This document shows, in pieces, positions 2,374 through 61,570 of a stretch of 64,000 nucleotides of DNA. Below the pieces are notes generated by a model. It had not been told where the DNA came from. It worked only from the letters and a program-made list of their open reading frames with translations, and did not search any database. The DNA comes from Clostridia bacterium (GTDB taxonomy: Bacteria; Bacillota; Clostridia; Peptostreptococcales; JAAYPU01), in contig JADQBM010000006.1 in the NCBI GenBank assembly GCA_016278615.1, positions 36,206-100,205 of the forward strand, read 5' to 3'. The position numbers and the translations under genes were made by a program. The stretch's first letter is position 1; each line of letters opens with the position of its first letter.

Positions 2374-2982
2374 ATGAAAGTAATCGGTTTAACAGGAGGT
2401 ATTGGTTCAGGAAAAACTTCTGCATCCAACTATCTTGAAAAAAAAGGAATAACGGTCATTGATGCCGATAAAATTTCCAGAGAAATCGTTGAACCTGGCA
2501 AAGCGGCATTAAATGAAATTGTTCTTTGTTTTGGCAACGAAATATTGAATGAAGATGGTACTTTGAATCGAAAAGCATTGGGAGATATTATCTTTCATGA
2601 TAAAGAAAAGCGCGCTACCCTTAATAAAATCATGCATTCAAAAGTTCTTCTTGAAATTAAGCATCAGTTAAAAGAGCTTAGAGAAAAGATCGTAGTAGTA
2701 GATGCCCCTTTATTAATTGAAACAGGTATTGACCAAATGATGGATGAAATATGGGTTCTAAATGTCCATGAGAAGGTTCAAATTCATCGAATAAAAAAGA
2801 GAGACAAGTTGTCTGATGCTGAGATAGAAGCACGCATGAAAGCCCAATTACTTCCAGCTGAAAGAAACAAGTTTGCAGATGTTATATTAGATAACTCTGG
2901 GGACCTCAAAGATTTATATAAACAAATAGATGAAGCACTAATAAAGATAGATAAAAGATATAAGATAAGAGATAAGAGATAA
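2374..2982 (+). CDS. coaE: dephospho-CoA kinase; last ~12 codons (IDKRYKIRDKR) lie inside the AGATAAN repeat tract
   Basis: N-terminal P-loop GLTGGIGSGKT, ~200 aa, canonical position directly after polA. Confidence 0.9.
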   Translation: MKVIGLTGGIGSGKTSASNYLEKKGITVIDADKISREIVEPGKAALNEIVLCFGNEILNEDGTLNRKALGDIIFHDKEKRATLNKIMHSKVLLEIKHQLKELREKIVVVDAPLLIETGIDQMMDEIWVLNVHEKVQIHRIKKRDKLSDAEIEARMKAQLLPAERNKFADVILDNSGDLKDLYKQIDEALIKIDKRYKIRDKR

Positions 2983-3168
2983 TTTATTAAAGATAGATAA
3001 AAGATAATAGATAACAGATAATAGTTGAGGAAGGATTTTGTTGCACAAAATCTCAATTTAACATCATTTAAAATCATTTAACATAATGATAGTTTTGTAT
3101 AACAAAACTCACCATAACTGTTATCTATTATCTGTTATCTGTCATCTATTATCTGTTATCTCTTATCT
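2945..3168. repeat. E1: inverted pair of heptamer-tract/hairpin repeat arms
   Basis: Left arm: AGATAAN tract 2945-3024, AGTTGAGG, hairpin GATTTTGt-tgc-aCAAAATC 3034-3052. Right arm is the reverse complement: hairpin 3091-3109, heptamers 3119-3168. Confidence 0.85.
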
Positions 3169-3191
3169 AATCTTTTAACATTGGCGGTGAA

Positions 3192-10248: not shown

Positions 10249-10305
10249 AGAAGATAAAAGATAAAAGATAACAGATAATAGTTAAGGTTGGGTTTATACA
10301 CCTGA
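10249..10305 (+). repeat. E2: solo heptamer-tract arm with a divergent or truncated hairpin part
   Basis: AGAAGATAAAAGATAAAAGATAACAGATAATAGTTAAGG, then TTGGGTTTATACACCTGATTTTT instead of the GATTTTG/CAAAATC hairpin. Confidence 0.75.
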
Positions 10306-28786: not shown

Positions 28787-29242
28787 TTGATGCTTGATAT
28801 GAACAGAGAAGGGTTTATAAAAAAAGCAGATGAAAAGTTAAAAATGATACGAATTGAAAATGATTACACACAAGATAAAATGGCAGAAGCTTTGGGCACA
28901 TCAAAAAAAACGCTGATTCAAATTGAAAAGGGTAGGGCTTCTTTAGGATGGTCTGGAGCGGTAACCTTATGTACCATTTTTAAAAATAGCGAAGTCTTAG
29001 AAATGACCTTTGGGGGACCACCTCATGATGTGATACTTTTGTTGGCTTTTGACAATTATGAAAGCTACGATAAAACAATGGGTGGAAAAGTCTGGTGGAA
29101 AGATATAGAAAAAAGAGGCAAATACAAAGTGCAACAAAATATCATTACTCAACATTATAGGATTTTAGACAGTGTTGAAAGAAAAATCTGTTCCTCTTTT
29201 GATTACAAATATATTAAAAAAAGATTATTGGAACTTACTTAA
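28787..29242 (+). CDS. XRE-type HTH protein with uncharacterised C-terminal domain
   Basis: YTQDKMAEALGTSKKTLIQIEKG HTH; start ambiguous (28787/28790/28799). Confidence 0.55.
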   Translation: MMLDMNREGFIKKADEKLKMIRIENDYTQDKMAEALGTSKKTLIQIEKGRASLGWSGAVTLCTIFKNSEVLEMTFGGPPHDVILLLAFDNYESYDKTMGGKVWWKDIEKRGKYKVQQNIITQHYRILDSVERKICSSFDYKYIKKRLLELT

Positions 29243-29290
29243 AAGGTTACTTTAGAAATAAAATCATGAAGAATGCAACGAGGTAAAATA

Positions 29291-30271
29291 ATGTTGACTT
29301 TTATGAAAGCCTATATTAAATCAATGCGACTATATTACTCATTTATAACTGGTATTTCTGGATGGATTGGTATTGCATTTTATGAACATATTGCTACCTC
29401 TCCTTACCAAACAATCGAAGTCCTTCCATCAACTGAGAAAAAGGCAGTCATATTAATTATGTTATTTCTAAGCTGGGGAATCAACCAAATTATCAATGAT
29501 TATTTAGGGCTTAAAGAAGATAGAATTAATGCACCACAACGGCCTATGGTTACAGGAGAATTAGATTTGCACAAATCTTTATTGGTTTCTTTTTTATTAC
29601 TGACCATGACTTTTATAATTACATTCTTTTTATTGGAACCTCTGGCTTTGATTCCTTTAATACTCGGCATTTTATTAAATGTTTTATACGAACATGCAAA
29701 AGGGTATGGACTTTTAGGGAATATAGTATTTGGATTAATGATTTCAATGTGCGCGGTATTCGGATTTCTTGCAGCAGGGCCGACACAGTCTCCCTATTTT
29801 ACTGAAAGTCGTGTTTCAATTCTTCTTTTAGTCATTATACTCAATGGACTCATGACCTTTTACACTTACTTTAAAGACTATGAAGGGGATAAGGCTGCAG
29901 CTAAAAAAACCCTTGTAGTGAAATTTGGAATTGAAAGATCAAGAATTGTCGCAGTTATTTCATCTTTTATTCCTGCGGCTGCTTTTATACTGCTATATTC
30001 TAATGATTTTATTATGGCAAGAGTAAATACTATGTTTCTGATTTTAGCCGGATTAACACTTTTTTTAGAAATATGGACTGGATATCTTTTTTATAAAAAC
30101 CCTGAGGGGGAAAGAACTTATTATTCATTGGCTGTTAATTTTAGAGCTTGCACCTGTGGCCAGGCGACACTTATCGCTTTATTTAATACAGAACTTGCCA
30201 TGCTTTTATTCTTAGTTTCATATATATTTGTAGGATTATTATTTGATTTACATGCAAATCCAAAATCATAA
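29291..30271 (+). CDS. UbiA-family aromatic/lipid prenyltransferase
   Basis: NQIINDYLGLKEDRINAPQRP (NxxxDxxxD) and YFKDYEGD second Asp-rich motif; ~8-9 TM. Confidence 0.8.
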   Translation: MLTFMKAYIKSMRLYYSFITGISGWIGIAFYEHIATSPYQTIEVLPSTEKKAVILIMLFLSWGINQIINDYLGLKEDRINAPQRPMVTGELDLHKSLLVSFLLLTMTFIITFFLLEPLALIPLILGILLNVLYEHAKGYGLLGNIVFGLMISMCAVFGFLAAGPTQSPYFTESRVSILLLVIILNGLMTFYTYFKDYEGDKAAAKKTLVVKFGIERSRIVAVISSFIPAAAFILLYSNDFIMARVNTMFLILAGLTLFLEIWTGYLFYKNPEGERTYYSLAVNFRACTCGQATLIALFNTELAMLLFLVSYIFVGLLFDLHANPKS

Positions 30272-30314
30272 GATCTAAAGAGTTCATTAAGTTAGAATTA
30301 TTGGGAGTTTTAAA

Positions 30315-31517
30315 ATGAAAGTATTTAAGGCAAAAAAAATCGGAACATGTCTACTAAAAAACAGATTAATTCGTTCTGCAACCTTTGAAGGCATGTGTGA
30401 CTCAAATGGCTTTCCCCTACAGGCCTATGAAGAGTTATACACTAAGTTGGTAGCAGGAGGTGTAGGGGGTATTATTACTGGCTTTGCTTATGTTTCTCTA
30501 GAAGGAAAAGCCATGCAACCCGGTCAAGCAGGTATGGATTCCCAGTCAAAAATTCCCTACTTTAAGTCCATCACGGACAATGTCCACAAATATAATAGCA
30601 AAATTTTCATGCAATTGGCCCACACTGGCCGCCAGACCAGAAAAAAGGAAACCAAACAGGATGTTTGGGGCGTATCAAGAAAGAGATCCTTGTATTTTTT
30701 ACAAAGGCCAAAAGTATTAACGTCTTCTGAAATCTATACAATCATAAATCAGTTTGCACAATCCGCCTTATACGCAAAAATGGCGGGTTTTGATGGGGTA
30801 CAGTTACACGCCGCTCATGGATATCTGATTCATCAATTTATTTTACCATCCATTAACAATAGAAGAGACGAATTTGGGATACCAGAAGGTTCCAACATCG
30901 GCACAAGATTCTTAGAATTGGTTATTGACGCCATTAGGATTCAATGCGGAAATGACTTTCCGTTACTTGTAAAAATAAGTGGTGGCGTAGATTATTGTCA
31001 TCCATTTACCCCAGTGCAATTCAAAAACCTTATAGGTTTCTTGGATTCAAAAAAAGTGGATGCCATTGAAATTAGTTATGGGACTATGGATTATGCTCTA
31101 AGTATCTTTAGAGGTGAAATACCTAAGCAGACCATTTTAGAGCATAATCCTATTTATAAAACCAATCATCCTTTTAAAAAAGTAGTCTTTAACGCATTGA
31201 TTTATCCTTTTATGTCATTAAAAATAAAGTCCTTTACACCTCTTTATAATATTGAGTATGCTAAGTTGGCAAAAGAGATTACGAAGATTCCTATTATTTG
31301 TGTTGGCGGAGTTCGAAAAGGCCAAGAAATTATATCTTGTATTGAGAATAACTCTGTTGATTTCATGAGCTTATGCAGACCACTTATTTGCGAACCTGAT
31401 TTTATCGAAAAATTGAAAAAAGATGAAAATTATATTTCAAAATGCACAAATTGCAATGTATGTGCAATTATGTGTGATGCCTTAGAACAGACTAAGTGCT
31501 ATAGGAGGCTACTATGA
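30315..31517 (+). CDS. Old-Yellow-Enzyme-type NADH:flavin oxidoreductase with C-terminal Cys cluster
   Basis: [31 protein letters not shown] motifs; C-terminal [11 protein letters not shown]. Confidence 0.8.
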
Positions 31518-31762
31518 ATTTAGAAGAGCGCATTATCACAACATTAAAAAACAACATGGAACGACTCCAAGAGATAAATATAGAAAGCAAATTAAAAGAA
31601 GATCTTGCATTGGATTCATTTGATATATTGATGGTTATATCTGCATTAGAAGATGAATTTTCAATTACGATCAATGAAGAAGACTTTTCAGAGGTTGTTA
31701 CTGTAGGTGATATCGTAGACAGAATGAGAGCAGTAAATAAGAAAGATAAAGATAAAAGATAA
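31514..31762 (+). CDS. acyl carrier protein; C-terminal KKDKDKR tail encoded by the repeat tract
   Basis: 82 aa, [19 protein letters not shown] phosphopantetheine-Ser context; ATGA overlap with the upstream gene. Confidence 0.8.
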
Positions 31763-31808
31763 TAGTTTAGGATGATTTTGCAACTCTTGTAGCAAAATCT
31801 TCATTTTA
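31739..31808 (+). repeat. E3: solo heptamer-tract/hairpin arm inside the operon
   Basis: AAGAAAGATAAAGATAAAAGATAATAGTTTAGGAT, then GATTTTGC-aactcttgta-GCAAAATC, then TTCATTTT. Confidence 0.85.
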
Positions 31809-31846
31809 AACTTTTTGCTTTGAACCTGATAGTAAAGGAGAAATGT

Positions 31847-33022
31847 ATGGGTTTTGAGAGTTTTTATAAGAGATTTGATGTTGATGAAAGGGTTGCGAAT
31901 GTAGCCGGCTTTAATCCGTATTATATGGAAATCGACTCTGGATTAAATGAAAAGATATGGATGAATGGCAGACAAATCATTAATCTTGCTTCAAATAATT
32001 ACCTTGGCTTAGCAACAGATGAAAGGGTAAAGGAAGCCATTATTTCAGCAGTTGAAAAATATGGCGCATCTTTGTGTGGAACGCCCATATCAACGGGATA
32101 TGTTGATTTGTATAAAAGGCTGGAATACTCATTGTCAAATTTTGTTAGGCTTGAGGATACCATCATACTTCCTTCATGCTATCAAGGAAATAATGGATTA
32201 TTTGTTTCCATTGCAAAAAAGGAAGATCTTATCATTGTTGATCGCTTTGCACATTCCTCATTGATTCAAGGGATTAAGGCTGTTGGCTGTAAGATCAGAC
32301 CTTTTCTACATAATAATTTAGAACATCTTGAAGGTATTTTGAAACGCTCACAAGATTATAAGCAAATCTTTGTTGTTACGGAATCTGTATTCTCAACAGA
32401 TGGGGATATCTCACCCTTTAAGGAAATTATCGATCTATGTGAAAAATACAACGCCTTACCAATCATAGATGATTCCCATGGCATTGGTGTGTTGGGGAAT
32501 ACAGGAAAAGGCATCCTTGAAGAGGAAAACATTATTAACTTCAAAGGCATTTATACCGCTTCCCTTGGTAAGGCCCTGGCCAATTCGGGAGGGATGATAA
32601 GTGGTAAAAAAGAGATTATAAACTACCTGAAATATTACTGTCCTCATTTGGTTTATTCTACTTCACTTACACCCTCAATCTTGGCAGGTATAGAAGCCGT
32701 GTTAAAGATTGTATCCTCAGAATTTGAATCATTAAAAAATAAATTGTATTCAAATAAACAAATTCTATTTGCAAGTCTTATGGAGGCAGGATTTGAAACA
32801 ACTGAGTGTATTGCTCCAATTAATAGCATTAAAACACAGAGCAAAGAAAATACTTTTAAAACAGCAAAAAGCTTTTTTGAGAAGGGCATTCTTTCAACCC
32901 CTTTTATTGAACCCTCTGTTCCTGTAAACCAAGGCTGTATAAGACTCATTGCAGGGGCCAATCTGACTCAGTCTACTATTGAAGAAGCCTGTGAGATTAT
33001 AAAGAGTGTGAGGAAGACATGA
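31847..33022 (+). CDS. PLP-dependent alpha-oxoamine synthase family (Spt/BioF/Kbl-like), divergent
   Basis: NNYLGL, DDSHGIGVLG, PLP-lysine context ASLGKAL; AAAGGAG RBS before ATG 31847. Confidence 0.8.
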   Translation: MGFESFYKRFDVDERVANVAGFNPYYMEIDSGLNEKIWMNGRQIINLASNNYLGLATDERVKEAIISAVEKYGASLCGTPISTGYVDLYKRLEYSLSNFVRLEDTIILPSCYQGNNGLFVSIAKKEDLIIVDRFAHSSLIQGIKAVGCKIRPFLHNNLEHLEGILKRSQDYKQIFVVTESVFSTDGDISPFKEIIDLCEKYNALPIIDDSHGIGVLGNTGKGILEEENIINFKGIYTASLGKALANSGGMISGKKEIINYLKYYCPHLVYSTSLTPSILAGIEAVLKIVSSEFESLKNKLYSNKQILFASLMEAGFETTECIAPINSIKTQSKENTFKTAKSFFEKGILSTPFIEPSVPVNQGCIRLIAGANLTQSTIEEACEIIKSVRKT

Positions 33023-33999
33023 AATATTTTCTTATCTTGAACCCTGGTTCTAAGGGAGGAAAAAGCAGAAAAAAATTCAAAACGATACTGGATATCTTGG
33101 AAGAGAACAATATTTCTTATGATTACAAGATAACCACAACCCTTGAAGATGCCACTGTTTTTTCAGCAGAAGCCAATCAAAAAGGTTATGATGTCATTGT
33201 ATCTGTAGGTGGTGACGGAACGATTAATAGAGTCATCAATGGATTTTTTGATCCTTATGGCAAAAGAATATCCCATTCAAAATTAGGCGTCATCTACACG
33301 GGAACAAGCCCTGATTTCTGCAAAAGCTATCATGTTCCTTTAAAAATCGAAAATGCAATGGGTGTATTGATTTCGGCCAAAAGCAAAAAAATTCAGATTG
33401 GCAAAATAAGTCATGCTTTACATTTTGAAAAAATCTTAGAGGGTCAAGCTTTGCCAATTAATTACCACCCCATGAAAACCAGCTACTTTGCATGCTGTGC
33501 CAATATTGGTATAGGTGCTTCACTTGCTAAGAATGCAAATAGTGGCATCAGAAAGTGGTTGGGGGATTACGGTGGAACCTTTATTTCTCTTATTAAAGCA
33601 TTAAAAAAATACGAAGCTTCAAGTTTTACAGTAACCTTAGATGGAAAAAAGCAAATCCTCCAAAAAGTTTATAATATAGGAGTAGGCCGAACGACTTTTA
33701 TTGCCTCTGGAATAAAAGTTAAAAACAATTTACAACCAGGTGATGGTCTTTTTTATAATCTTATAATTAAAAACATAAGTTTTTTTAATTGCCTTGGTAT
33801 ATTAAAAAAAATATATAGTGGAAAAGATATTATCAATGGACCTATTATTGCATTGAAATATGCAAAAGTCATAGAAATTTACGGGTGCAATAAGAATCCT
33901 GAGTTGGAGTTTGACGGTGATGCAAGTGGTTATCTTCCATGCCTGATAGAATCAACTCGAGACCCATTGGACTTAATTTGCGAGGTGCAAAATGAGTAA
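33019..33999 (+). CDS. DAGK-catalytic-domain lipid kinase (YegS/BmrU-like)
   Basis: ILNPGSKGGK, VSVGGDGTINRVINGF; ATGA overlap with the upstream gene. Confidence 0.8.
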   Translation: MKYFLILNPGSKGGKSRKKFKTILDILEENNISYDYKITTTLEDATVFSAEANQKGYDVIVSVGGDGTINRVINGFFDPYGKRISHSKLGVIYTGTSPDFCKSYHVPLKIENAMGVLISAKSKKIQIGKISHALHFEKILEGQALPINYHPMKTSYFACCANIGIGASLAKNANSGIRKWLGDYGGTFISLIKALKKYEASSFTVTLDGKKQILQKVYNIGVGRTTFIASGIKVKNNLQPGDGLFYNLIIKNISFFNCLGILKKIYSGKDIINGPIIALKYAKVIEIYGCNKNPELEFDGDASGYLPCLIESTRDPLDLICEVQNE

Positions 34000-34999
34000 A
34001 GAGAAAGAAATGATTGAAATCATCAACAAACACATGCCGAAAAGTCCAACACAGTTGAATAAATTGTTTGAATCAGATGCTGAAATCATCGATTTTCAAA
34101 GCAAAAGACTTGCCTATAGCATGGATGAATTTTCCGAAGAAGATTTATTATCAGATGAAGACGCCTATACCCTTGGGTGGAATATGGCAGTGGGGTGTAT
34201 AAGTGATATCTTGGCCAGCGGCGGAAATCCTAAGTATTATGCCCATAGTCTTGCAGTTAATCGCACATGGACAAAGGAATATATTGAAAAGCTTTCAATG
34301 GGAATAGGCAAGGCTCTAGAAGAAGCGGGAATGTCCTTTATTGGGGGAGATTTTAGTATTGCAAAGACTTGGCGATATACAGGCTCCATAATCGGTGAAC
34401 TTATAGGAAATCCCTTATTAAGGCGTGGAGCAAAAGTTGGAGATCTAATATTTATTTCCGGCAGAATAGGCGCTGGAAATATTGATGCCGCTCTTAAGCT
34501 TTATTGGGATAACCCAAGAGACATTAAAATACCTAAACAGTTTAAGAGTCGGTTTAAACTTCGAAAAAATGAGGCGTTATTAATCAAAGAATTTGCTCAT
34601 TGTTGTATAGATACAAGTGATGGCGTTTTAAGTGCACTTAAGGCAGTATCTGACATCAATGAAACTGGCTATAAAGTGAGTTATTTACCCTATAAAAAGA
34701 GGGGCATCTTCCTTGCGAAATTACTAAATCTGCCCAAAGAATTGTTATTTTTTGGGGGATGTGGCGAGTACGAGCTACTTTTTACTATTAGCAAAGAGGC
34801 ATCTGAAGATTTTTTAATTCAATCCAAGAAAAGAAATTTTAAATTTTATAAAATTGGCGAAATAAAAGAAAAAGACATTCAGTTATTGCATACTAAAGAG
34901 AAAGAAATTGATTTAAATTTATATGATTTATGTGCAAGAGACTATGAAAACCCCAAAGATTATTTGAAGGATGCGATTCATTTTTTGCATGTTAAATAA
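33992..34999 (+). CDS. PurM/AIR-synthase-superfamily protein (ThiL-like ATP-dependent enzyme)
   Basis: SDAEIID...YSMDEF...ISDILASGGNP...FIGGD... resembles ThiL/PurM N- and C-domains; 8-nt overlap with the kinase gene. Confidence 0.65.
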   Translation: MSKEKEMIEIINKHMPKSPTQLNKLFESDAEIIDFQSKRLAYSMDEFSEEDLLSDEDAYTLGWNMAVGCISDILASGGNPKYYAHSLAVNRTWTKEYIEKLSMGIGKALEEAGMSFIGGDFSIAKTWRYTGSIIGELIGNPLLRRGAKVGDLIFISGRIGAGNIDAALKLYWDNPRDIKIPKQFKSRFKLRKNEALLIKEFAHCCIDTSDGVLSALKAVSDINETGYKVSYLPYKKRGIFLAKLLNLPKELLFFGGCGEYELLFTISKEASEDFLIQSKKRNFKFYKIGEIKEKDIQLLHTKEKEIDLNLYDLCARDYENPKDYLKDAIHFLHVK

Positions 35000-35016
35000 G
35001 AAAGATGGCGTTTATT

Positions 35017-36273
35017 ATGAAGCGAAGAGTTGTTATTACAGGAATAGGTCCTGCAACAGCTATAGGGATCGGGAAAGAAGAATTATTCCAAAGTGTCTTG
35101 GAAATGAAAACATGCATTTTAAAGATACCAGATTGTTATGAAAAGAATTATACTTTTAAGTCTCGTTATTTTGTTCCCAAGCCTGTGTTTTCCTTAGTGG
35201 ATTATGGTATTCCTAAATCCTCTGAATATATTATGGAGGAGATCTCACGACTTTCAGTTCTGTGTACAAGGTTGGCTCTGGAAGATGCAAAGTTTAAAAT
35301 CAAGAAAAGGGGTCAATTTTTTGAAGTGGTGGATTGCCCAAAGAACTCTATGACGATACTTGGCATAGGGATGAGCAGTCTTCAGACAGCTTTTGATTCT
35401 TATACAGCTCATAATACAGAAAATAGCAAGAATCGTTTTAATCGGATGGTGATTCCCATGTTGATGCCAAACTCAGCATCGTCTTGGGTATCTATTGTAT
35501 ATGGTACAAATGGTTTTAATTATACGGTAAACGCTGCCTGTGCATCTGGAAGTCTGGCAATAGGTGAGGCTTATTCCAATATCCTAAATGGCAAATGTGA
35601 TGTGGCCATAACCGGTGGGGTTGAAGCTCTGGCTGAAAAAGAGGGTGCTGTTATGAGAGGCTTTGACATGCTCACAACTCTTACAAAATCAAAAGATGGC
35701 AAACCTTTACCTTTTTCAAAACAACGAAGCGGATTTTTATTTAACGAGGGCGCAGGATGCGTTCTGATCCTTGAAGAACTCCAAAATGCTCGCAAGAGAG
35801 GCGCTGATATATACGCGGAAATAGTGGGATATGAAAGTTCCAGTGATTCACATCATATTGTTCAGATGGAACCTTCAGGACAAAACATTGCTATGCTCTT
35901 TGAAAAGCTAACTAAGGGAATAAAGATTGATTATTTAAACGCCCATGGAACAGCAACCCTTTCCAATGATGAAATTGAAGCTAAAATCATTCAAGATTTG
36001 TTTGGAGACAAAAGCACCCAACCCACTATAAATTCAACAAAAGGTATTTTAGGACACAGCATCGGTGCAAACGGAGCCATAGAGGCTGCCGTAACAGCTA
36101 TGTCAATAAAAAATGCCTTAATACATGGGAATCTAACAACAGACCCAATGGACAACTTAAATCTTCCCATGACAACCATTGAAGCTAAAATCAAATATGC
36201 TATTTCCGCTTCATATGGCTTTGGGGGACATAATGTCTTATTATTATTGAAGAGGTTTGAAGAAAATGAATAA
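35017..36273 (+). CDS. beta-ketoacyl-ACP synthase (KAS I/II family)
   Basis: MKRRVVITGIG, active-site AACASGS, NAHGTAT and GHSIGANG His motifs. Confidence 0.85.
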   Translation: MKRRVVITGIGPATAIGIGKEELFQSVLEMKTCILKIPDCYEKNYTFKSRYFVPKPVFSLVDYGIPKSSEYIMEEISRLSVLCTRLALEDAKFKIKKRGQFFEVVDCPKNSMTILGIGMSSLQTAFDSYTAHNTENSKNRFNRMVIPMLMPNSASSWVSIVYGTNGFNYTVNAACASGSLAIGEAYSNILNGKCDVAITGGVEALAEKEGAVMRGFDMLTTLTKSKDGKPLPFSKQRSGFLFNEGAGCVLILEELQNARKRGADIYAEIVGYESSSDSHHIVQMEPSGQNIAMLFEKLTKGIKIDYLNAHGTATLSNDEIEAKIIQDLFGDKSTQPTINSTKGILGHSIGANGAIEAAVTAMSIKNALIHGNLTTDPMDNLNLPMTTIEAKIKYAISASYGFGGHNVLLLLKRFEENE

Positions 36274-37297
36274 TGTAATGATTACAGGTGCCACTGGCTT
36301 TATTGGCAGTCACATTGTCCGAATTTTTTGTGAGAATCAGATTCATGTGGGTTGTTTAATGAGAGAAACCAGCAATAGAAAGAACCTAAATGGACTGCCA
36401 ATAGAAATAAAGATTGGCGATATAAGAGAGGGCGAAGGGATAGAAACTGCATTTCAAGGATACGATTGTGTCATTCATAATGCTGCAAAAGCAGAGGACT
36501 GGGGACATTATGATGAATTTTTTCAAACAAATGTGATGGGAACATTAAATGTATTAAGAGCATCTGTAAAAGCAGGTGTTAAGAATATCATTTTAACTGC
36601 TTCTAATTCCGTTTATGGAGAAGAAAACAGTTTTATTGTAAAAGATGAGAATTCACCCTACAAGTCTCACTACAAATATTTCGGAGATGGTGTTTTCCCG
36701 TGCAAATTGAATTATTATCGCGATACCAAGGCCTTGGCAAAAAAAGAAGCCATAAAATTTGCTAAAGAACATGATTTGAACCTTACGATCATAGAGCCTG
36801 TTTGGGTTTATGGCGAAAGGGAATTCAATACTGGGTTTTATGAGTATATTAAGACAGCTGGAACCGGCATTGTGTTTTTGCCAGGATCGAAAAAAAATAA
36901 ATTTCATGTTGTGTATGCAGGGGATCTCGCCAGGGCCTACCTTGCTGCGTATAAGAAACACTTGGTAGGCATCAACTGTATACTTATTGGAAATGAAAAA
37001 GCTGAAAGCATGGACAAAATCTATAGACTGTTTTGCTTAGAAGCTGGAATTAGAAAGCCTTTCAATATCCCAAAGATCCTAGTATATCCAATAGCATTTA
37101 AACTAGAGTTACTCTACACGATATTTCGCGCTAAGAAACCACCCCTTCTAACCCGGGGAAGGGTCAATATGTTTTATGATAATATCGAGTTCTCAGTTAA
37201 AAAAGCAGAGGAACTTCTGGGGTTTACAAACCAATATACTTTAGAGGAAGGAATCAAAAAAACAGTTGCTTGGTATAAGGAGCAGAAGCTAATTTGA
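36266..37297 (+). CDS. NAD-dependent epimerase/dehydratase-family reductase
   Basis: ITGATGFIGSH Rossmann, YYRDTKALAKK (YxxxK); 8-nt overlap with KAS. Confidence 0.8.
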   Translation: MNNVMITGATGFIGSHIVRIFCENQIHVGCLMRETSNRKNLNGLPIEIKIGDIREGEGIETAFQGYDCVIHNAAKAEDWGHYDEFFQTNVMGTLNVLRASVKAGVKNIILTASNSVYGEENSFIVKDENSPYKSHYKYFGDGVFPCKLNYYRDTKALAKKEAIKFAKEHDLNLTIIEPVWVYGEREFNTGFYEYIKTAGTGIVFLPGSKKNKFHVVYAGDLARAYLAAYKKHLVGINCILIGNEKAESMDKIYRLFCLEAGIRKPFNIPKILVYPIAFKLELLYTIFRAKKPPLLTRGRVNMFYDNIEFSVKKAEELLGFTNQYTLEEGIKKTVAWYKEQKLI

Positions 37298-37323
37298 TAC
37301 AAGTGATAGGAAACTGGAAAATG

Positions 37324-37622
37324 AAGATAAAAGATAATAGATAATAGATAACAGTTAAGGATGATTTTGTTCCAAAATCTTCGTTTTAATTTAAAAGAGT
37401 AAGAAGATGCGTAGAGACGACCCTTGCGGTTGTCCGTATGAGATAAAAGAGTATTTGTCATCGCGAGGAGTATAGCGACGTGGCGATCTATCATAAAGCA
37501 AAATAAAGGTAACTGTAGGGGCTGGTCCTGTGCCTGCCCGAACAAGATTCAGGTTTATTATTCAAATGAAGATTTTGTGTAACAAAATCCTTCCTAAACT
37601 ATTATCTGTTATCTATTACCTA
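37324..37622. repeat. E4: inverted pair of heptamer-tract/hairpin arms enclosing a ~170-nt GC-richer cargo (MITE-like)
   Basis: Left arm 37324-37388 (hairpin GATTTTG-ttc-CAAAATC 37363-37379). Right arm 37563-37622 is its reverse complement (hairpin 37571-37589). Interior has several hairpins and no credible ORF. Confidence 0.85.
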
Positions 37623-37636
37623 TAAGGGAGATTATT

Positions 37637-38932
37637 ATGATAAAAACAAATAATGTCACTGGGATTCATAAAAATTTATTTAATTTGAAATTGAAAATCT
37701 TTGTTTTCTTTTATTTCATTCCTGAGTTTATTAAAGGAAATATTTCATTAAAAAGATATACGCTCTTTTTAAAAAGACTTTTACTTTTCCTTGCAAAGAT
37801 GCAACACAATAAATTTGTAAAAATCGGAAGCAAAACTCGAATGAATTTATATGTCCCGGGTTTTGCTTCAAAAGCATTTCTCACGGCCTGTAAGAAATTT
37901 TTACAATTTGAAAATCAAATGCCTTGTACAACGGTTTTAATATCCATTACTTCTTCTTGTACATATCACTGTAGCCATTGTTATCAAAAACTCGATAAAG
38001 GCAAAGATGTGGATTTAAACTTATTGATTCCAATTGTGAAAAAACTTCAAGACAGGGGCATTGCTTTCTTCAATATTGAAGGAGGGGAGCCATTTTTAGT
38101 CTATGACAGATTAAAAAGTATCTGCACATCCATTGATGAGAGATCAGAAATCTGGATAAACTCAACGGGTGTTGGAATTACCATAGAGAGACTAATGGAA
38201 TTGAAAAAAATGAATGTTACTGCTATCATGTTTTCTTTACATAGTTCTCAGCGGGATATTTTTAATGATTTTATGGGGGATGATTCTGCGTGGGATACAC
38301 TTGAATCCGCTATTCATCTATGTCATGAAGCAGGCTTAGGAGTTACCTTTAATTCATGTCTTATGAAAGATGATTTTTACAACGGGAATTTTGAAAAAAT
38401 CATGGAAACTACTAAAAAATATAACGCCTCCTTGGTTCAAATCATAAAGCCAAAGCCTTCCGGCGGATGGCTTGAAAAAGAAGATATAGAATTTACTCAA
38501 ATGGATATAGACGATATTAAGAAAAAGGTTCTTCGATACAATTCCCAGCATAAGTTTAAAGAATACCCTTCGATTTTTGCTCAGATTATTGAAGAGGATA
38601 AAGATGTTTTTGGCTGCACAGCGGGTGGAATAGACAGGTTTTATATCAATGCAAAAGGAGACATTCAGCCATGTGAGTTTCTAAACATATCTTTTGGGAA
38701 CATAAGAGAAGAAGATTTCGAAACCATCTATAATAGAATGAGAAATTCTTTTGAGTGGGGAGGGGATTGCATGATTTGTGAGAAATATGCTAAGGAAGTT
38801 CGTGAAATCTTTAAAGATAATCATTTATCATCCTTACCCCTTTCTTCAACACTATCTGAAAAGATTTATGGTTCATGGGATAGAGGTGACAAGACGGAAT
38901 TGTATGAAAAGCTGGAAGAGATTAAAGGATAG
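37637..38932 (+). CDS. radical SAM enzyme with extra C-terminal Cys motifs
   Basis: CTYHCSHCYQ cluster motif; C-terminal CTAGG...QPCEF and CMICEKY cysteines. Confidence 0.8.
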   Translation: MIKTNNVTGIHKNLFNLKLKIFVFFYFIPEFIKGNISLKRYTLFLKRLLLFLAKMQHNKFVKIGSKTRMNLYVPGFASKAFLTACKKFLQFENQMPCTTVLISITSSCTYHCSHCYQKLDKGKDVDLNLLIPIVKKLQDRGIAFFNIEGGEPFLVYDRLKSICTSIDERSEIWINSTGVGITIERLMELKKMNVTAIMFSLHSSQRDIFNDFMGDDSAWDTLESAIHLCHEAGLGVTFNSCLMKDDFYNGNFEKIMETTKKYNASLVQIIKPKPSGGWLEKEDIEFTQMDIDDIKKKVLRYNSQHKFKEYPSIFAQIIEEDKDVFGCTAGGIDRFYINAKGDIQPCEFLNISFGNIREEDFETIYNRMRNSFEWGGDCMICEKYAKEVREIFKDNHLSSLPLSSTLSEKIYGSWDRGDKTELYEKLEEIKG

Positions 38933-39040
38933 ATATCAGAAAATAGATAACAGATAATAGATAAGGGATAGATAAGAGATAACAGATAATAGATAAGAGT
39001 TGAGGAGGATTTTGCATGAAATAGGCAAAATCTTCTTTTG
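38931..39040 (+). repeat. E5: solo heptamer-tract/hairpin arm
   Basis: ~10 AGATAAN-type units, AGTTGAGG, GATTTTGC-atgaaatag-GCAAAATC (39008-39032), TTCTTTTG. Confidence 0.85.
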
Positions 39041-39117
39041 TTTAGATTAATACCTTTTGTTTAGGGTAATCTAATAAGTGAGAAGTTGTAAAAATAACAA
39101 CGTAAAGGAGAATTTCT

Positions 39118-39579
39118 ATGAGTGCAATTGCAGTAGGTGTAGACGCACCGAACTTTACTGTAAAGGATCAGAATAACAATAATATAAGCTTATCAGATTT
39201 AAGAGGAAAAAAGGTTCTCTTATCTTGGCATCCTTTGGCCTGGACTCCAGTTTGTACCGATCAAATGCGAGGATTAGAAACCAATTTTCAAGAATTTCTT
39301 AATCTAAACACAGTACCCCTAGGTTTTAGTGTAGACTCTCAGCCTTGCAAAGCAGCATGGGCTACAGCACTACAAATTCATTATGTTAGTCTTCCGGCTG
39401 ACTTTTGGCCTCATGGTAAAGTTGCACAGGAATATGGCATATTTAACGACAAGATAGGGGTATCTGAGCGTGCCAATATCATTATAGACGAAAATGGCAA
39501 GGTAAAATGGGTGAAAGTTTACCCACCGGGACAACTTCCGGATATTAATGAGGTTTTGCAGGTTTTGGGAGAAGCGTAA
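39118..39579 (+). CDS. thiol peroxidase / peroxiredoxin (AhpC/TSA-Bcp-like)
   Basis: WHPLAWTPVCTDQ peroxidatic Cys context, 153 aa. Confidence 0.8.
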   Translation: MSAIAVGVDAPNFTVKDQNNNNISLSDLRGKKVLLSWHPLAWTPVCTDQMRGLETNFQEFLNLNTVPLGFSVDSQPCKAAWATALQIHYVSLPADFWPHGKVAQEYGIFNDKIGVSERANIIIDENGKVKWVKVYPPGQLPDINEVLQVLGEA

Positions 39580-39580
39580 A

Positions 39581-39720
39581 GAAGAAAGATTAAAAAGATA
39601 GATAAAAGATTAAAAAGATAGATAAAAGATAAGAAGATAGATAAGAGAAAAAGATAGATAAGAGATAACAGATAATAGTTAAGGTTGATTTTGCAACAAC
39701 TGCTAGCAAAATCTTCATTG
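39581..39720 (+). repeat. E6: longest solo arm, with a 22-nt higher-order duplication
   Basis: AGATTAAAAAGATAGATAAAAG occurs twice in tandem, then AGATAAN units, AGTTAAGG, GATTTTGC-aacaactgcta-GCAAAATC (39687-39713), TTCATTG. Confidence 0.85.
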
Positions 39721-39734
39721 ATTTATAAGTTCAG

Positions 39735-39951
39735 TGAGGTAGAGTAAAATCTATCTCGTTTTTTTATCTTAAAGATACTCCAGGGACATTCCTTAAAAAG
39801 ATAGACCCTTAAGCGAAAGGTGTGTCCCTTTACCTTTAATTTGAGTCCTTTAATTGAAATTTACTGCAAAACGGGCGCAAACCTGCTAATAAATACATTA
39901 AACATCTCTTACGTGTTGGAACTTAGAATGTATGAGGAACAGGGTGCAAAA
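39735..39951. repeat. X1: mosaic repeat copy (modules A+B)
   Basis: Module A 39735-39838 with 13-bp hairpin AGGGACATTCCTT/AAGGTGTGTCCCT (39781-39828); module B 39858-39951. Confidence 0.8.
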
Positions 39952-40097
39952 GTGGGGGAGATACTTGGTTTAAAGCGAAAAGATATATATCGTTACATTA
40001 TTTTACATTAATTGTTAATTTTATGCTATTATAATATTAAATAATCTTTATTGTCACAACAAATTTGTTGTGATAATATGTATAAAAGAGAGGTAAG

Positions 40098-40439
40098 ATG
40101 AAAATACATGCTTATACTACTAAAGGTGGTAAGAATGAAATATTCGGTTACTTAAATAGTCTACCAAATAAGGAAAAAGCTGAAGGCTATACAATTATTT
40201 CAATGTTAGAAGAAAAAGGTATGGAATTACTTAACATTTTGAATACACGGCAACTTCAAGGTAAGATTTGGGAAATTAAATTCTATAGACATAATAGAAT
40301 AATGTATATTTTAATAGATGAAGAAAATATTTTTTTACTACATGCTTGTAAGAAGCAAAAAAACAAAGCAGAAAAGAAAAATATAAATATAGCCGTTCAA
40401 AGAGCGAAGGAGATTTCACCTACTGTTTCTGCAGAATAA
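40098..40439 (+). CDS. higB: type II toxin, RelE/HigB-like (Gp49/DUF891-type)
   Basis: 113 aa; KIWEIKF...RIMY...LLHACKKQKNK pattern; toxin-first order with an XRE antitoxin gene downstream. Confidence 0.7.
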   Translation: MKIHAYTTKGGKNEIFGYLNSLPNKEKAEGYTIISMLEEKGMELLNILNTRQLQGKIWEIKFYRHNRIMYILIDEENIFLLHACKKQKNKAEKKNINIAVQRAKEISPTVSAE

Positions 40440-40476
40440 GTCCATGAGTAAACATGTAAGGAAAGGAGAAAAACAA

Positions 40477-40770
40477 ATGCCTTTTGAGCGTATTAATATT
40501 AAAGAATCCATTTCCCAGGAATGTGGAAAGAATGAAGAGTTCAGAGAAGCTTACAATGAAATGATGGAAGAATATAAATTAATTAGTTATGTGGTAAAAG
40601 CTAGAAAAGCAAAAGGATTAACCCAAGAAGCCTTAGCAAAAGCAATCGGTGTTAAACAACAAGAAATTTCCAGATTCGAGAATAGAAAACATATGCCGAC
40701 TTTATCTAATTTAACAAAAATTTTAGATGGTTTAGATTTGCAATTAAGCATTACTCCTAAAAAAAGATAG
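40477..40770 (+). CDS. higA: XRE-family HTH antitoxin (HigA-like)
   Basis: LTQEALAKAIGVKQQEISRFENRK HTH; AAAGGAG RBS before ATG 40477. Confidence 0.75.
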   Translation: MPFERINIKESISQECGKNEEFREAYNEMMEEYKLISYVVKARKAKGLTQEALAKAIGVKQQEISRFENRKHMPTLSNLTKILDGLDLQLSITPKKR

Positions 40771-40807
40771 TGTTTTGTAAAACAAAATAAGAAACGTTGC
40801 TTTTCTT

Positions 40808-41181
40808 GAGGTGGGTTAAAAATCTATCTCATTTTTTTATCTTAAGGATCGCCCAGGGACATTCCTTGGAAAGATAGACCCTTAAGCGAAAGGTGTGTCC
40901 CTGTACCTTAAATCTCTTCTTGTTTTGCAAACGAACCCTTAAGATAAGGTTAAGCTTCAGCATAGACGCGGTGCGCTAAGTCCTTGCAAATTGTGATGTA
41001 GGGACCGGTTCTGTAGTAAATAAGATACCCTAGGGACATTCCTTAGAAAGATAGACCTCTAAGGGAAAGGTGTGTCCCTTTACCTTTATATTTACTGCAA
41101 AACAAGCGCAAACCTGCTAATAAATACATTGAACATCTCTTACGTATTGAAACTTAAAATGTATGAGAACAGGGTGCAAAA
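40808..41181. repeat. X2: mosaic repeat copy (modules A+C+A'+B)
   Basis: A 40808-40910, C 40914-41021, partial A 41024-41086 inserted in the C/B hairpin loop, B 41090-41181. Confidence 0.8.
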
Positions 41182-41292
41182 TGAAAAGCAAGAATACTTA
41201 AGAGAGGTAGCCCCCAGGCATTCTAAATCAACTTTTGCACACAAAATAGTGAGTTGGATGTAATAGTTCAAGGGGGAGACGTTCAATCTATT

Positions 41293-41516
41293 TCTTCTTG
41301 TTTTGCAAACGAACCCTTAAGGTAGGGTTAAGCTTCAGCATAGACGCGGTGCGCTAAATCCTTTCAACATATGATGTAGGGACCGGTTTTGCAGTAAATG
41401 ATATTTAAGTTCTTTAAAGGAAATTTACTGCAAAACAGATGCAAACCTGCGAATAAATAGATTAAACATCTCTTACGTATTGGAACTTAGAATGTATTAG
41501 AAACAGGGTGCAAAAG
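41293..41516. repeat. X3: mosaic repeat copy (modules C+B), the cleanest ~225-nt unit
   Basis: C 41293-41399, B 41423-41516. 14-bp IR GTTTTGCAGTAAAT/ATTTACTGCAAAAC; possible closing helix TTTTGCA (41301-07)/TGCAAAA (41509-15). Confidence 0.8.
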
Positions 41517-41563
41517 TTAAATTTAAACAAAAAGATTATAGGATGAACCTATAATCTTTTTCT

Positions 41564-41606
41564 TGGTGCCGAAGGCGGGACTTGAAGACGGGCGGCCGTC
41601 TGCCGA
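41564..41606 (-). pseudogene. tRNA-Leu 3'-end fragment (internally deleted copy)
   Basis: TGGTGCCGAAGGCGGGACTTGAA is identical to the first 23 nt of the intact tRNA at 41750; preceded by a similar terminator hairpin. Confidence 0.6.
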
Positions 41607-41749
41607 TCTTTTGTGTCATGTTTGTATTGATGATGTTGTTTATTTGATTTCTATATAGCATTTGAAAGTGTCCGCTTCTTTACGCGGGTTCTTCGCACCC
41701 ACCTTTCAGACAATTAAAAAATCATAGGATAACCCTATGATTTTTTAAT

Positions 41750-41836
41750 TGGTGCCGAAGGCGGGACTTGAACCCGCACGTTGTTACCAACACTGGATTT
41801 TGAGTCCAGCGCGTCTGCCAATTCCACCACTTCGGC
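41750..41836 (-). tRNA. tRNA-Leu (anticodon CAA), CCA encoded
   Basis: Reverse complement reads GCCGAAGTGGTGGAATTGGCAGACGCGCTGGACTCAAAATCCAG...GCGGGTTCAAGTCCCGCCTTCGGCACCA; anticodon loop CTCAAAA. Confidence 0.9.
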
Positions 41837-41964
41837 AAGTCACTTAACAATAATAGCATATTCCATATAAATATTCAAGAAAAATTAAATTCTATATTAT
41901 GTAAAAAAATAAAGGAATTTGAATTTTTTAGGAGAATATAAATAATTCATAAGGGGGGATAGAA

Positions 41965-49998: not shown

Positions 49999-50002
49999 TT
50001 TA

Positions 50003-50136
50003 AAATTAAGAATTAAGAATGAAGAATTAAGGTAGAGATTTTCATAAAAATCTCTTTGATTTTTATGAAAAAATAATTGATTTTATAAAATAAAATCTAC
50101 CATAATTCTTAATTCTTAATTTTTAATTCTTAATTA
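50003..50136. repeat. E7: inverted-pair element of the same architecture but with GAATTAA-type heptamers
   Basis: Left: AATTAAG repeats, AAGG, hairpin AGAGATTT/AAATCTCT (50034-50055). Right (reverse complement): AATTAAG repeats, ATGG, GATTTTA/TAAAATC (50079-50097). Confidence 0.8.
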
Positions 50137-50245
50137 TTTTATGGTAATTATAACCTTCATCAAATATTCATGACGTTGCATGATTTCTTTTATATTTAGG
50201 CAAAATAAAAGCATGTAAGAGAATATAAAAAGAAAGGATGAATAA

Positions 50246-50612: not shown

Positions 50613-51386
50613 TTGGTTGAAAAAGCGAATATTCGAAAGGAGGACTATACTATTTTAGACCATACTAGAGGCGCTCGTCCGCTTTATCAACAAATTATAG
50701 ATGAAATGTTAGAAGGCATCAATCAAAGTAAGTGGATTGAAGGTAGTAAGTTTCCTACAGAAGAAGAATTTTGTGAATATTACAAGGTAAGTAGAATTAC
50801 AGTTCGACATGCTATTAATGAACTTGTTCGAGAAGGATTTTTGACTAGAAAAAGAGGGAAAGGAACAATTGTAAAAAGTAGAATCATAGATAATTATAAT
50901 AAAGCCATCGGCCTTGAGGAAAGAATGAAGGAACTGGGTGTAGATACTTTTAATACAAATATTGAAATAAAAAAAATAGTACCACCTATAAGAGTATGTC
51001 GTGAATTTGTAATCGATGAAAACCAATGGGTTTATGAAATAAGGCGAATACAAGTCGTAAAAGAGGATGGTGTTGTTTTAGCAGGTATCCACAATTATTT
51101 AAACCCTAAGCTTGATATTAGTTTAAATCCTAAAGATTACTCAGTTTCTCTTTATAAATATTTAAAGGAAAAAAAGGGAATCATTGTCTCCAGTGCAAAA
51201 GAAACCATTGAAGCTATTAAATCAAATAAAAGAATCAATGATTTTTTAGGAGTTGAAATTGATGTCGTTTTAAAAAAGACAAGAACTTCTTATGATCAAA
51301 ATAATGATATAGTTGAATTTACTTATTCCTATTATCCTTCTACAGCTTATAAATATACTGTGGAGTTTAGTTTGAATGGTAAATAA
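50613..51386 (+). CDS. GntR-family regulator with UTRA-like effector domain (HutC subfamily)
   Basis: PTEEEFCEYYKVSRITVRHAINELVREGFLTRKRGKGT. Start uncertain: TTG 50613 abuts a TATAAT box, while a strong AAGGAGG (50636-42) is followed in frame only by ATT 50652. Confidence 0.8.
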   Translation: MVEKANIRKEDYTILDHTRGARPLYQQIIDEMLEGINQSKWIEGSKFPTEEEFCEYYKVSRITVRHAINELVREGFLTRKRGKGTIVKSRIIDNYNKAIGLEERMKELGVDTFNTNIEIKKIVPPIRVCREFVIDENQWVYEIRRIQVVKEDGVVLAGIHNYLNPKLDISLNPKDYSVSLYKYLKEKKGIIVSSAKETIEAIKSNKRINDFLGVEIDVVLKKTRTSYDQNNDIVEFTYSYYPSTAYKYTVEFSLNGK

Positions 51387-51637: not shown

Positions 51638-51697
51638 TATTGTTATAACATTAAAAATTATAACATTATAACAATTCGAGTTTAATGTTATAACAAT
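51638..51697. promoter_or_regulatory. cluster of GTTATAAC palindromes (candidate GntR operator)
   Basis: ATTGTTATAACATT, ATTATAACATTATAACAATT, AATGTTATAACAAT within 60 nt, just upstream of the 51715 operon. Confidence 0.6.
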
Positions 51698-51714
51698 AAA
51701 GGTAGGGGAGCTAT

Positions 51715-58852: not shown

Positions 58853-58872
58853 TTGTTATAACATTATAACAA
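58853..58872. promoter_or_regulatory. second copy of the candidate GntR operator
   Basis: TTGTTATAA-CA-TTATAACAA: perfect 9-bp inverted repeat, 40 nt before the transketolase-like gene. Confidence 0.6.
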
Positions 58873-58911
58873 ATAATTTGGCTAATAAAGCTAAAAGAAA
58901 GAGAGGACACT

Positions 58912-61074: not shown

Positions 61075-61199
61075 ATTTCTCAGTATTAAAAGCAAAACAA
61101 TGCAATAATCCTCATAGCTATTGACATATCTACACCTATTTATTATAATTTCTTTAGTCTATACATATAATAAGACAATGAAAAAGAAAAGTATAATAT

Positions 61200-61570
61200 A
61201 ACTTGTTCTCAAGAGAGAAAGATGTATGGTGAAAGTCTTTTGCTCAGGTATATTAGAAGCAGCTTTTGAGTCTTTTTCCTGAAAAAGCAGTAGAAATCTA
61301 CAAATACAAGATTTGGTCGGCTAAGTAATCTAAATCAAAGATTTAGACTACGCGACATCTGACCTACGACACAATCAAAGATTGTTGTTAGGTCATTATG
61401 ATTTCATTGCATAAGTTCGCCATCAATTCATTATCATGAACTGGGCGAGCTAATATTAGGGAAAAACGGTTTCCGCCGTTATTGGATTAAGTGATCATCA
61501 TTTTTGATGGTAAGTAGGGTGGTACCGCGATACACTCGTCCCTATATTCCTTTAGAGGCGGGTTTTTTTA
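61200..61570 (+). promoter_or_regulatory. T-box riboswitch leader of alaS
   Basis: AGAGAG/GGTGAAAG stem I elements (61210-61245), T-box core GGGTGGTACCGCG at 61517-61529, terminator-like CTCGTCCCT..AGAGGCGGG plus T7 (61535-61569); GAAGCAG context offers a GCA (Ala) specifier. Confidence 0.85.

Follow-up and report, generated by a model that had tools for sequence, protein, structure and literature searches.

Several kinds of short repeat are known to occupy the spacers of bacterial genomes. The REP, BIME and REPIN elements of Proteobacteria are short extragenic imperfect palindromes that occur in many copies, as single units or inverted doublets, and in mosaics with other motifs (PMC3116915). 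Intergenic arrays of tandem heptamers have been described with TAACTGA units in Beggiatoaceae, Cyanobacteria and Bacteroidetes, where MacGregor noted that the stop-containing units overlap the end of a coding sequence by a few codons only (PMC4679880), with GGGNATC units in Xanthomonas and Nostoc (PMC4692102), and as the STRR arrays of heterocystous cyanobacteria, so far as these two papers cite them. Bacterial miniature inverted-repeat transposable elements (MITEs) include Correia/NEMIS, RUP, ERIC, Nezha and the enterobacterial RU-1/2/3 (PMC2759123). Here, we describe a repeat family at seven loci (E1 to E7) in a 64-kb stretch of DNA from a member of the Clostridia (hereafter the window), whose basic unit, the arm, joins a tandem AGATAA-N heptamer array to a short junction and a hairpin. 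The Nostoc small dispersed repeats (SDR) of Elhai et al. (2008, Genome Res 18:1484) are reportedly tiny, hairpin-forming and apparently mobile, and associated with tandem heptamers and other repeats, and are said to differ from the arms in sequence, size and host. The parts of the arm are of known kinds (heptamer microsatellite, REP-like hairpin, MITE-like pair), and what is new is that they are fused into a single oriented unit in which six bases of the heptamer are fixed and the seventh is free. We favor, at a probability of roughly 55%, the reading that the arms are a lineage-restricted mosaic repeat like BIMEs or MITEs that combines an STRR-like heptamer microsatellite with a REP-like hairpin.

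The arms are a real, dispersed, apparently unnamed and lineage-restricted repeat family. All seven loci listed in an initial annotation of this DNA were recovered in place, and its proposal of a genuine dispersed family with a three-part arm was borne out. In the window, AGATAANAGATAANAGATAA (three consecutive AGATAA-N units, up to two mismatches) matched 30 times against 0.06 expected by chance, and GATTTTG-N(3-15)-CAAAATC matched six times against 0.02 expected, with all six matches adjoining arrays; as a control, the hairpin-plus-tail pattern alone matched 27 viral contigs, none of which had an array. An nhmmer profile built from 13 arms recovered seven complete main-type arms (E1a, E1b, E3, E4a, E4b, E5 and E6; E = 1e-13 to 1.5e-9) and the truncated E2 (model positions 1-32 only), which with the variant pair E7 brings the window to seven complete arms, one truncated arm and one variant pair. 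The same profile found nothing significant in 42 kb from three relatives, where heptamer arrays were likewise lacking. Nor are the elements assembly artefacts, as E4b and the start of E5 were reproduced exactly by independent Logan contigs of SRR24974067, and the whole E7 pair recurs in a JGI metagenome contig with one single-nucleotide polymorphism (SNP) in ~460 nt. Logan contigs of the same run end inside E1a and E7b, and such breaks are expected for multi-copy repeats. The elements are as follows.

E1a, 2945..3060, + strand: left member of the E1 pair; ~11 AGATAA-N units, slightly interrupted; profile E = 7.9e-12.
E1b, 3083..3169, − strand: inverted right arm of the E1 pair; b-type, seven in-register units; profile E = 1.5e-9.
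E2, 10251..10297, + strand: truncated arm; four units and AGTTAAGG, without the GATTTTG/CAAAATC hairpin; profile E = 5.9e-6.
E3, 31742..31812, + strand: solo arm between the acyl carrier protein (ACP) and aminotransferase genes.
E4a, 37325..37392, + strand: left arm of the E4 pair; four units, AGTTAAGG, AT, then GATTTTG-TTC-CAAAATC; profile E = 1.2e-13.
E4 pair interior, 37409..37546, + strand: three G+C-rich modules, M1, M2 and M3.
E4b, 37556..37622, − strand: inverted right arm of the E4 pair, a-type; abuts the ribosome-binding site (RBS; AAGGGAG) of the radical SAM gene; profile E = 1.7e-12.
E5, 38931..39045, + strand: solo arm starting at the TAG stop of the radical SAM gene; ~10 units.
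E6, 39580..39725, + strand: solo arm right behind the TAA stop of the peroxiredoxin gene.
E7, 49999..50138, no strand assigned: variant inverted pair behind mnmA; AATTAAG units, junction AATTAAGG and GATTTT/AAAATC hairpins.

A complete arm reads, in order, (AGATAA+N)n, an AGTTRWGG junction, 2-3 nt, GATTTTG-loop-CAAAATC and usually TTCNTTT; the array of E1a, for example, is followed by AGTTGAGG, AAG and the hairpin GATTTTGT-TGC-ACAAAATC. The earlier description of every arm as having the same three parts needs correction for E2 (no hairpin), E1b (variant stem GTTTTG/CAAAAC) and E7 (a different heptamer), and its spacer of 1-3 nt and loop of 3-11 nt give way to measured values of 2-3 nt and 3-12 nt. 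Tandem Repeats Finder and period-7 scans detected 3 to ~15 tandem units per arm, with variable copy number. In AGATAA-type units, conservation at positions 1-6 is at least 95%, and any of the four bases can stand at position 7 (T 18, C 26, A 10 and G 12 over 66 in-register units); the departures at positions 1-6 in these 66 units come mainly from the AGGTTAC units of locus L008 and the degenerate outer units of metagenome contig L007, both outside the window. An array in which position 7 is free while positions 1-6 are fixed is unlike a freely drifting microsatellite, and iterated recognition of the heptamer is a plausible reading of this pattern.

One form of such recognition would be by a protein on double-stranded DNA (a regulator, a nucleoid protein or a transposase with subterminal sites), for which AGATAA hexamers at 7-bp spacing would serve as iterated sites. 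The fixed hexamer fits this reading, as does the 21-nt super-period (two helical turns) in E1b, and GATAAT presumably can be likened to the hexamer unit of the Fur box. However, the arrays lie at gene 3′ ends and not at promoters, their 7-bp spacing differs from the 6-bp Fur array, their copy number of 3 to ~15 is unrelated to gene function, and homogeneous AGATAAN arrays occur in many unrelated viral contigs. In addition, the free loop length favors an extruded single-stranded hairpin over a dimer site on duplex DNA, and altogether we regard duplex protein sites as improbable. Spacing or position also seemed wrong for the CodY box, Fur box, ToxR heptads, TRAP, Hfq and CsrA motifs, DnaA boxes, dif and parS, which were set aside.

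Beyond the array, the junction is itself a degenerate unit, and a GGA/Shine-Dalgarno-like motif is present there in 9 of 12 arms. A conserved small open reading frame (ORF) starting at a junction ATG was rejected, as it occurs only in E3 and E4a. The initial annotation had suggested that the hairpin is under structural constraint, and this is supported: the sequence of the 7-bp stem is invariant while the loop is free, the eighth stem pair covaries (T-A in three arms, C-G in four, A-T in one and T.G in one), and in the b-type arms (E1b and the right arm of the L008 pair) the stem has become one base shorter on either side. Seven of the eight AGATAA-N arrays in the window continue into this junction and hairpin (E2 has only the junction), and the hairpins of all seven arms in the 64 kb are intergenic or at gene ends. 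Outside the array, the remaining ~45 nt (junction, spacer, stem and TTC tail) show 80-93% identity from one unrelated locus to another and between assemblies.

This identity bears on whether the arms share an origin at all, as heptamer microsatellites might have grown in place beside pre-existing terminator hairpins and come to look alike by convergence. Among the long simple-sequence repeats of bacteria, those with 7-nt units are the most frequent (Mrazek 2007, as cited in PMC4679880 and PMC4692102), AGATAAN arrays turn up in many settings that have nothing else in common, and other heptamer flavors occur in the same contigs, all of which would fit. Against this stand the 80-93% identity of a part that holds no array and the orthologous spacers in relatives, which at 10-15 nt offer no starting hairpin; independent origins are therefore already disfavored and, in our assessment, highly improbable.

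Those relatives also show how some of the arms arrived. The window is chromosomal, has a G+C content of 34%, and comes from a spore-forming member of the Clostridia, with genes or elements including SpoIVB, Spo0A, a T-box leader, polA-coaE, rplU-rpmA-obg and iscS-iscU-mnmA. Nearly all genes are on the + strand, which is the leading strand because GC and AT skew are positive throughout. Proteins identical to those of the window were found only in one NCBI metagenome-assembled genome (MAG) contig (106,967 bp), in Logan contigs of SRR24974067 and in one JGI contig; the closest relatives, by the radical SAM protein, are 70-74% identical. In three of them (L009, L010 and L011), the operon HTH-UbiA-OYE-ACP-aminotransferase-DAGK-AIRS-KAS-epimerase-radical SAM is kept, and two of its spacers compare as follows.

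ACP-to-aminotransferase spacer: 10-11 nt (stop, RBS, start) in L009, L010 and L011; 84 nt with E3 in the window.
Epimerase-to-radical-SAM spacer: 14-15 nt in L009 and L011; 339 nt with the E4 pair in the window.

As the relatives' spacers are arm-free and 10-15 nt long, E3 and the E4 pair are insertions, with presence and empty orthologous sites seen against distant relatives (70-74% protein identity). In L010, which lacks E3 and E4, an unrelated hairpin-rich insert of 124 nt (L010:9877-10000) occupies the epimerase/radical-SAM spacer, and on this comparison the spacer is a recurrent landing site for small repeats. The operon itself (window positions 28787-38932) comprises ten genes, tightly packed in the relatives, for a helix-turn-helix (HTH) regulator, a UbiA prenyltransferase, an OYE flavoprotein, the ACP, a KBL/SPT-like aminotransferase, DAG-kinase-like and AIR-synthase-like proteins, a ketoacyl synthase, an epimerase and a radical SAM/SPASM protein. 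It looks like an uncharacterised lipid or secondary-metabolite pathway common to several Clostridia.

The same comparison undoes the suggestion, made in the initial annotation, that the radical SAM and peroxiredoxin genes are each bracketed by arms like cassettes. In an integron-like arrangement, the arms would be attC-like sites around these two mobile genes, and the arms do stand behind consecutive genes in the same orientation (E4, E5 and E6), with a junction, GTTRAGG, that we take to resemble loosely the integron core GTTRRRY. The radical SAM gene, however, is the conserved last member of a packed, arm-free operon in all three relatives, and the cassette reading fails for it because E3 and E4 were inserted into spacers of a fixed operon, E3 parting two genes that are never separated in the relatives. 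The peroxiredoxin homologues of relatives are monocistronic, in other contexts and without arms. No integrase is encoded in the window, and in the pairs the core-like motifs come in the reverse of the attC order. Integron-like cassettes are thus essentially refuted. Right behind the E5 hairpin, at 39033-39080, CTTTTGTTTAGATTAATAC is followed by CTTTTGTTTAGGGTAATC, the second copy matching the conserved peroxiredoxin promoter region of relatives (L015); this doublet may be a local duplication made at insertion.

How arms can enter gene ends without breaking genes is apparent from the array. Each 7-nt unit contains TAA, and three units stop all three sense-strand frames, so that a gene hit in its last codons gains no more than a short Lys/Asp/Arg-rich tail; arrays can therefore abut or replace stop codons and be tolerated at gene ends. 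The reverse complement of the array is free of stop codons. Accordingly placed arms include E3, into whose array the ACP gene runs, gaining the tail KKDKDKR (six extra residues), and E1a, whose array takes in the stop codon of coaE (2980-2982). The distance from the stop codon to E4a is 27 nt, and E1b ends 23 nt ahead of the GTG start of the SBP gene. The initial annotation had all solo arms starting at or within the last codons of a gene and pointing along it; the orientation is true of all of them, but E2 starts 70 nt past the L27 stop, immediately after a canonical terminator in the space between rpmA and obg.

Such placement raises the alternative that the arm is a 3′-untranslated-region or terminator module kept by host selection and not by mobility, in which the A-rich array would be an unstructured spacer or protein platform and the hairpin with its U-tract would terminate or attenuate transcription and protect the mRNA 3′ end. 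Arrays start at or a few nucleotides from a stop codon in E1a, E3, E5, E6, E7a, L002, L003 and L006, every solo arm is co-directional with its upstream gene, and the A-rich 5′ flank, hairpin and U-rich tail right behind stops recall an intrinsic (Rho-independent) terminator. The extended stem of E3 (−16.6 kcal/mol) is followed by TTTTGCTT, the 14-bp stem of E5 (three G.U pairs, −15.8 kcal/mol) by a T-rich tail, and in E3, E5 and L003 alike a stem of −14 to −17 kcal/mol precedes 8 nt that include 4-6 U. Folding is also strand-biased: in 13 of 14 arms, the sense strand folds more stably than the antisense strand (mean −11.1 vs −8.5 kcal/mol), because G.U pairs join the purine-rich 5′ half to the pyrimidine-rich 3′ half. 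At L002, inverted arrays lie on both sides of a canonical terminator, and in a 65% G+C viral contig (AGATAAR)n with AGTTATGG or AGATATGG precedes G+C-rich hairpins, the sole array with a listed adjacent ORF following that ORF.

Other observations speak against termination as the reason for the arms. The core stem is just 7-8 bp and A/U-rich, loops reach 12 nt, folded arm segments span −5.5 to −16.6 kcal/mol (predicted stem-loop strength is about −7 for E4a and about −16 kcal/mol for E3 and E5), arms other than E3, E5 and L003 are weaker, and a consensus terminator scan flagged none. No promoter-like site was found before the genes downstream of E3 and E4, which lie inside an operon and would thus be co-transcribed and read through. 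Unlike typical intrinsic terminators, several copies are intra-operonic or stand beside canonical ones: E2, as described, and E6, whose long, degenerate array with ~20-nt super-repeats is followed by a canonical terminator at 39733-39767. The L008 pair sits between divergent genes, and relatives do without arms. We therefore consider a host-selected terminator module unlikely, and a role of the solo arm as a leaky terminator or 3′ protective structure, as the predicted folds suggest, is more plausible than that of a full terminator.

The inverted pairs (E1, E4 and E7) are 140-300 bp long and non-coding, and the other four of the seven loci are solo arms. All three pairs are predicted to form long hairpins (E1, −76.9 kcal/mol, z = −11.1; E4, −96.7 kcal/mol, z = −7.6; E7, −44.6 kcal/mol, z = −8.5), while E2 has no significant fold. 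The likening of pairs to MITEs in the initial annotation is strengthened by the finding that the E1 and L008 pairs are homologous as whole units, with 73% identity over 150 nt and an a-type left and b-type right hairpin in each. Length, long inverted ends, hairpin folds (z −7.6 to −11.1), insertion in spacers or gene ends and altered C-termini are all shared with MITEs. The pairs differ from MITEs in that their ends are arrays of variable length in place of defined terminal inverted repeats, no target-site duplication was seen at E4 and no parent insertion sequence was found, and half-elements (solo arms), strictly oriented, are in the majority.

Similarly, the arms resemble REP sequences and BIMEs as multi-copy extragenic imperfect palindromes, single or in inverted doublets, which form mosaics that fill spacers; REP and BIME elements are transcribed with the upstream gene and can stabilize its mRNA. 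E1, E4 and E7 are such inverted doublets, and E4 encloses M1-M3, of which M1 (37409-37442) and M3 (37513-37546) each consist of GTAG followed by an imperfect palindrome, the classical REP form. A copy of M2 (37454-37498) with 95.6% identity adjoins the arm of L007, where sequence related to the E4 modules lies at L007:335-379 and L007:597-630. Together, the GTAG modules and the recurrence of M2 suggest that there may be a REP/RAYT-type system in this lineage. The arms themselves carry AGTTRWGG and 2-3 nt before the stem in place of the 5′ GTAG that is the RAYT recognition site, and GTAG occurs only in M1 and M3 of E4. The arm hairpin further differs from REP in being A/T-rich, fused to a heptamer microsatellite and hosted by Clostridia, and no gene for a RAYT (Y1 transposase) with flanking repeats was found in the window.

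Outside the window, the full arm is rare. Our full-arm search pattern, with 25 specified bases, matched only one of 185,579 species-representative genomes (a set without the source genome), an uncultured Eubacteriales MAG, as well as six metagenome contigs and no viral contigs; no transposase was found on the matching genome and metagenome contigs. Besides the L008 pair, full arms there lie behind DUF711, hydF, mutS2 and a T2SS-F gene, again co-directional with the gene. In L007, L008 and L002, AGATAA-N units and the hairpin are embedded in, or adjacent to, arrays with further heptamer types (AGGTTAC, GGTTAGN and GGATAGA), and this joint travel indicates that the arm behaves as one copied unit. 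L007 also has hundreds of nucleotides of purine-rich 7-8-nt arrays (GGTTAGN, GGATAGA and GGGTAGA; telomere-like and G-rich) at 120-240, 400-590 and 1170-1266, which flank the hutP gene and surround the AGATAA-N arm, with several heptamer flavors in one genome as in cyanobacterial STRR. With STRR-type arrays, the arms share intergenic tandem 7-nt units, variable copy number, several flavors per genome and the limited overlap with stop codons, and they differ in having six bases fixed and the seventh free, in the joining of the array to a conserved junction and hairpin that are copied with it, and in forming inverted pairs.

No match to a named family was found. Rfam covariance models reached the gathering score only for the T-box and two tRNAs, with the arms unmatched even at E ≤ 5; BLAST of the E4 interior with both hairpins (37352-37600, arrays excluded) against plasmids and phages gave no match; and literature searches for array strings returned irrelevant matches only. 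These searches thus support the initial annotation in its view that the family is unnamed, but the architecture has more precedent than it implied, as stop-codon heptamer arrays are published (PMC4679880 and PMC4692102) and AGATAAN arrays alone occur, with at least four units, in at least 80 viral contigs.

These viral arrays, all without an arm, fall into several sets. The first has homogeneous arrays in A/T-rich giant-virus bins and phages. The second has (AGATAAG)n in cyanophage-like contigs bearing the cyanobacterial HIP1 palindrome; at L045, L054, L058, L059, L066, L072 and ~15 more loci (~36-40% G+C), (AGATAAG)4-9 is followed by a common ~60 nt ending in GCGATCGC, that is, HIP1, and this group is probably a cyanophage or cyanobacterial STRR-type element. 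In the third set, of 63-66% G+C (L017, L050, L079, L099 and L120), mixed A/G arrays, (AGATAAR)n, which are A/T-rich, terminate in AGTTATGG, AGATATGG or AGATAGGG right beside G+C-rich hairpins. L017 (IMGVR_UViG_3300035512_000712) also has an inverted pair at 4420-4517, (AATTCCG)n arrays flanking a hairpin on both sides at 6022-6114, and a 161-nt tandem repeat at 2156-2495. Over 46 non-redundant viral arrays, structured sequence (z < −2) is found downstream in 12 and upstream in 4, a weak trend that is largely driven by the G+C-rich group.

A further reading would make the AGATAA-N array an iterated site for an RNA- or single-stranded-DNA-binding protein which, with the hairpin, would form a 3′-end module or mobility system common to some Clostridia and to phages of very different base composition (the L017 group). 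It is compatible with the fixed hexamer and free position, with the sense orientation of solo arms, and with the succession of array, ATGG-type junction and hairpin in G+C-rich viral contigs, but we hold a system shared so widely to be quite unlikely.

Returning to an inserted mosaic repeat as the favored reading, the copied unit would consist of at least two to three AGATAA-N heptamers, AGTTRWGG and a ~45-nt imperfect palindrome (GATTTTG-loop-CAAAATC-TTC). At the distance of the nearest sequenced relatives, the operon comparison demonstrates that copies entered very short spacers behind genes, two of them within a conserved operon, after the split from these relatives. Copies are found alone or in inverted pairs, and a pair may contain other small repeats (the REP-like GTAG hairpins). 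The stronger folding of the sense strand and the constraint on hexamer and stem likewise speak for this reading. Mechanistically, array length would change by replication slippage, and the hairpin would act in sense-strand single-stranded nucleic acid, most likely a read-through transcript, where a solo hairpin with a U-rich tail could serve as a weak terminator or 3′ protective stem-loop, and pairs would form 25-40-bp duplexes that could be processed. Spread would need a trans-acting enzyme or ectopic recombination through the arrays, either by a Y1/RAYT-type enzyme on the lagging-strand template (the + strand here) or by ectopic conversion.

Several points weigh against this reading. Among the genes of the window, there is no transposase, RAYT or integrase. 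At E4, the sole site with both flanks conserved, no target-site duplication longer than 1-2 nt was seen, with relatives ~27% diverged in DNA. The relatives compared are only 70-74% identical, and samples of the same strain carry identical elements; when array length was compared between samples, L001, L012, L124 and L125 were identical to the window or one SNP apart. Outer ends made of variable-length arrays fit poorly with the termini of classical transposons. Lastly, solo arms always run along the upstream gene with arrays starting at stops, which could reflect host selection for function.

The window contains other repeats and features besides the arms. A second, unrelated set of dispersed direct repeats, with three unit types of ~60-110 nt in 2-3 copies each, occupies 39760-41840 around a HigB(Gp49)/HigA-like toxin-antitoxin pair (40098-40770). 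Two near-identical terminators, at 39733-39767 and 40807-40840, flank the HigB/HigA-like region, and a partial copy of the tRNA-Leu(caa) 3′ end at ~41567-41605 lies beside the intact gene (41750-41836, minus strand); the region 39760-41840 looks like a relic left by an element that had integrated at the tRNA gene. Palindromes of TGTTATAACA are present at 51641-51700 (four or five copies before an SDR/cupin/ABC operon) and at 58853-58874 (two copies before a transketolase gene), and they are probably operators of the adjacent GntR/UTRA regulator (50613-51386). Near the window end, a full-length T-box leader (119.5 bits) lies at 61169-61546.

Overall, the arms would add a Firmicute case to the small set of repeat families that couple a heptamer microsatellite physically to a hairpin, and show how an element that stops all frames can colonize gene ends and operon spacers of 10-15 nt without the loss of those genes. 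As the arms break short-read assemblies of this lineage and add short C-terminal extensions (ACP and CoaE), they bear on MAG annotation, and as they may modulate operon polarity, they bear on how operons in MAGs are interpreted. A cognate enzyme or binding protein, if found, would provide a handle on why heptamer arrays abound in some bacteria.

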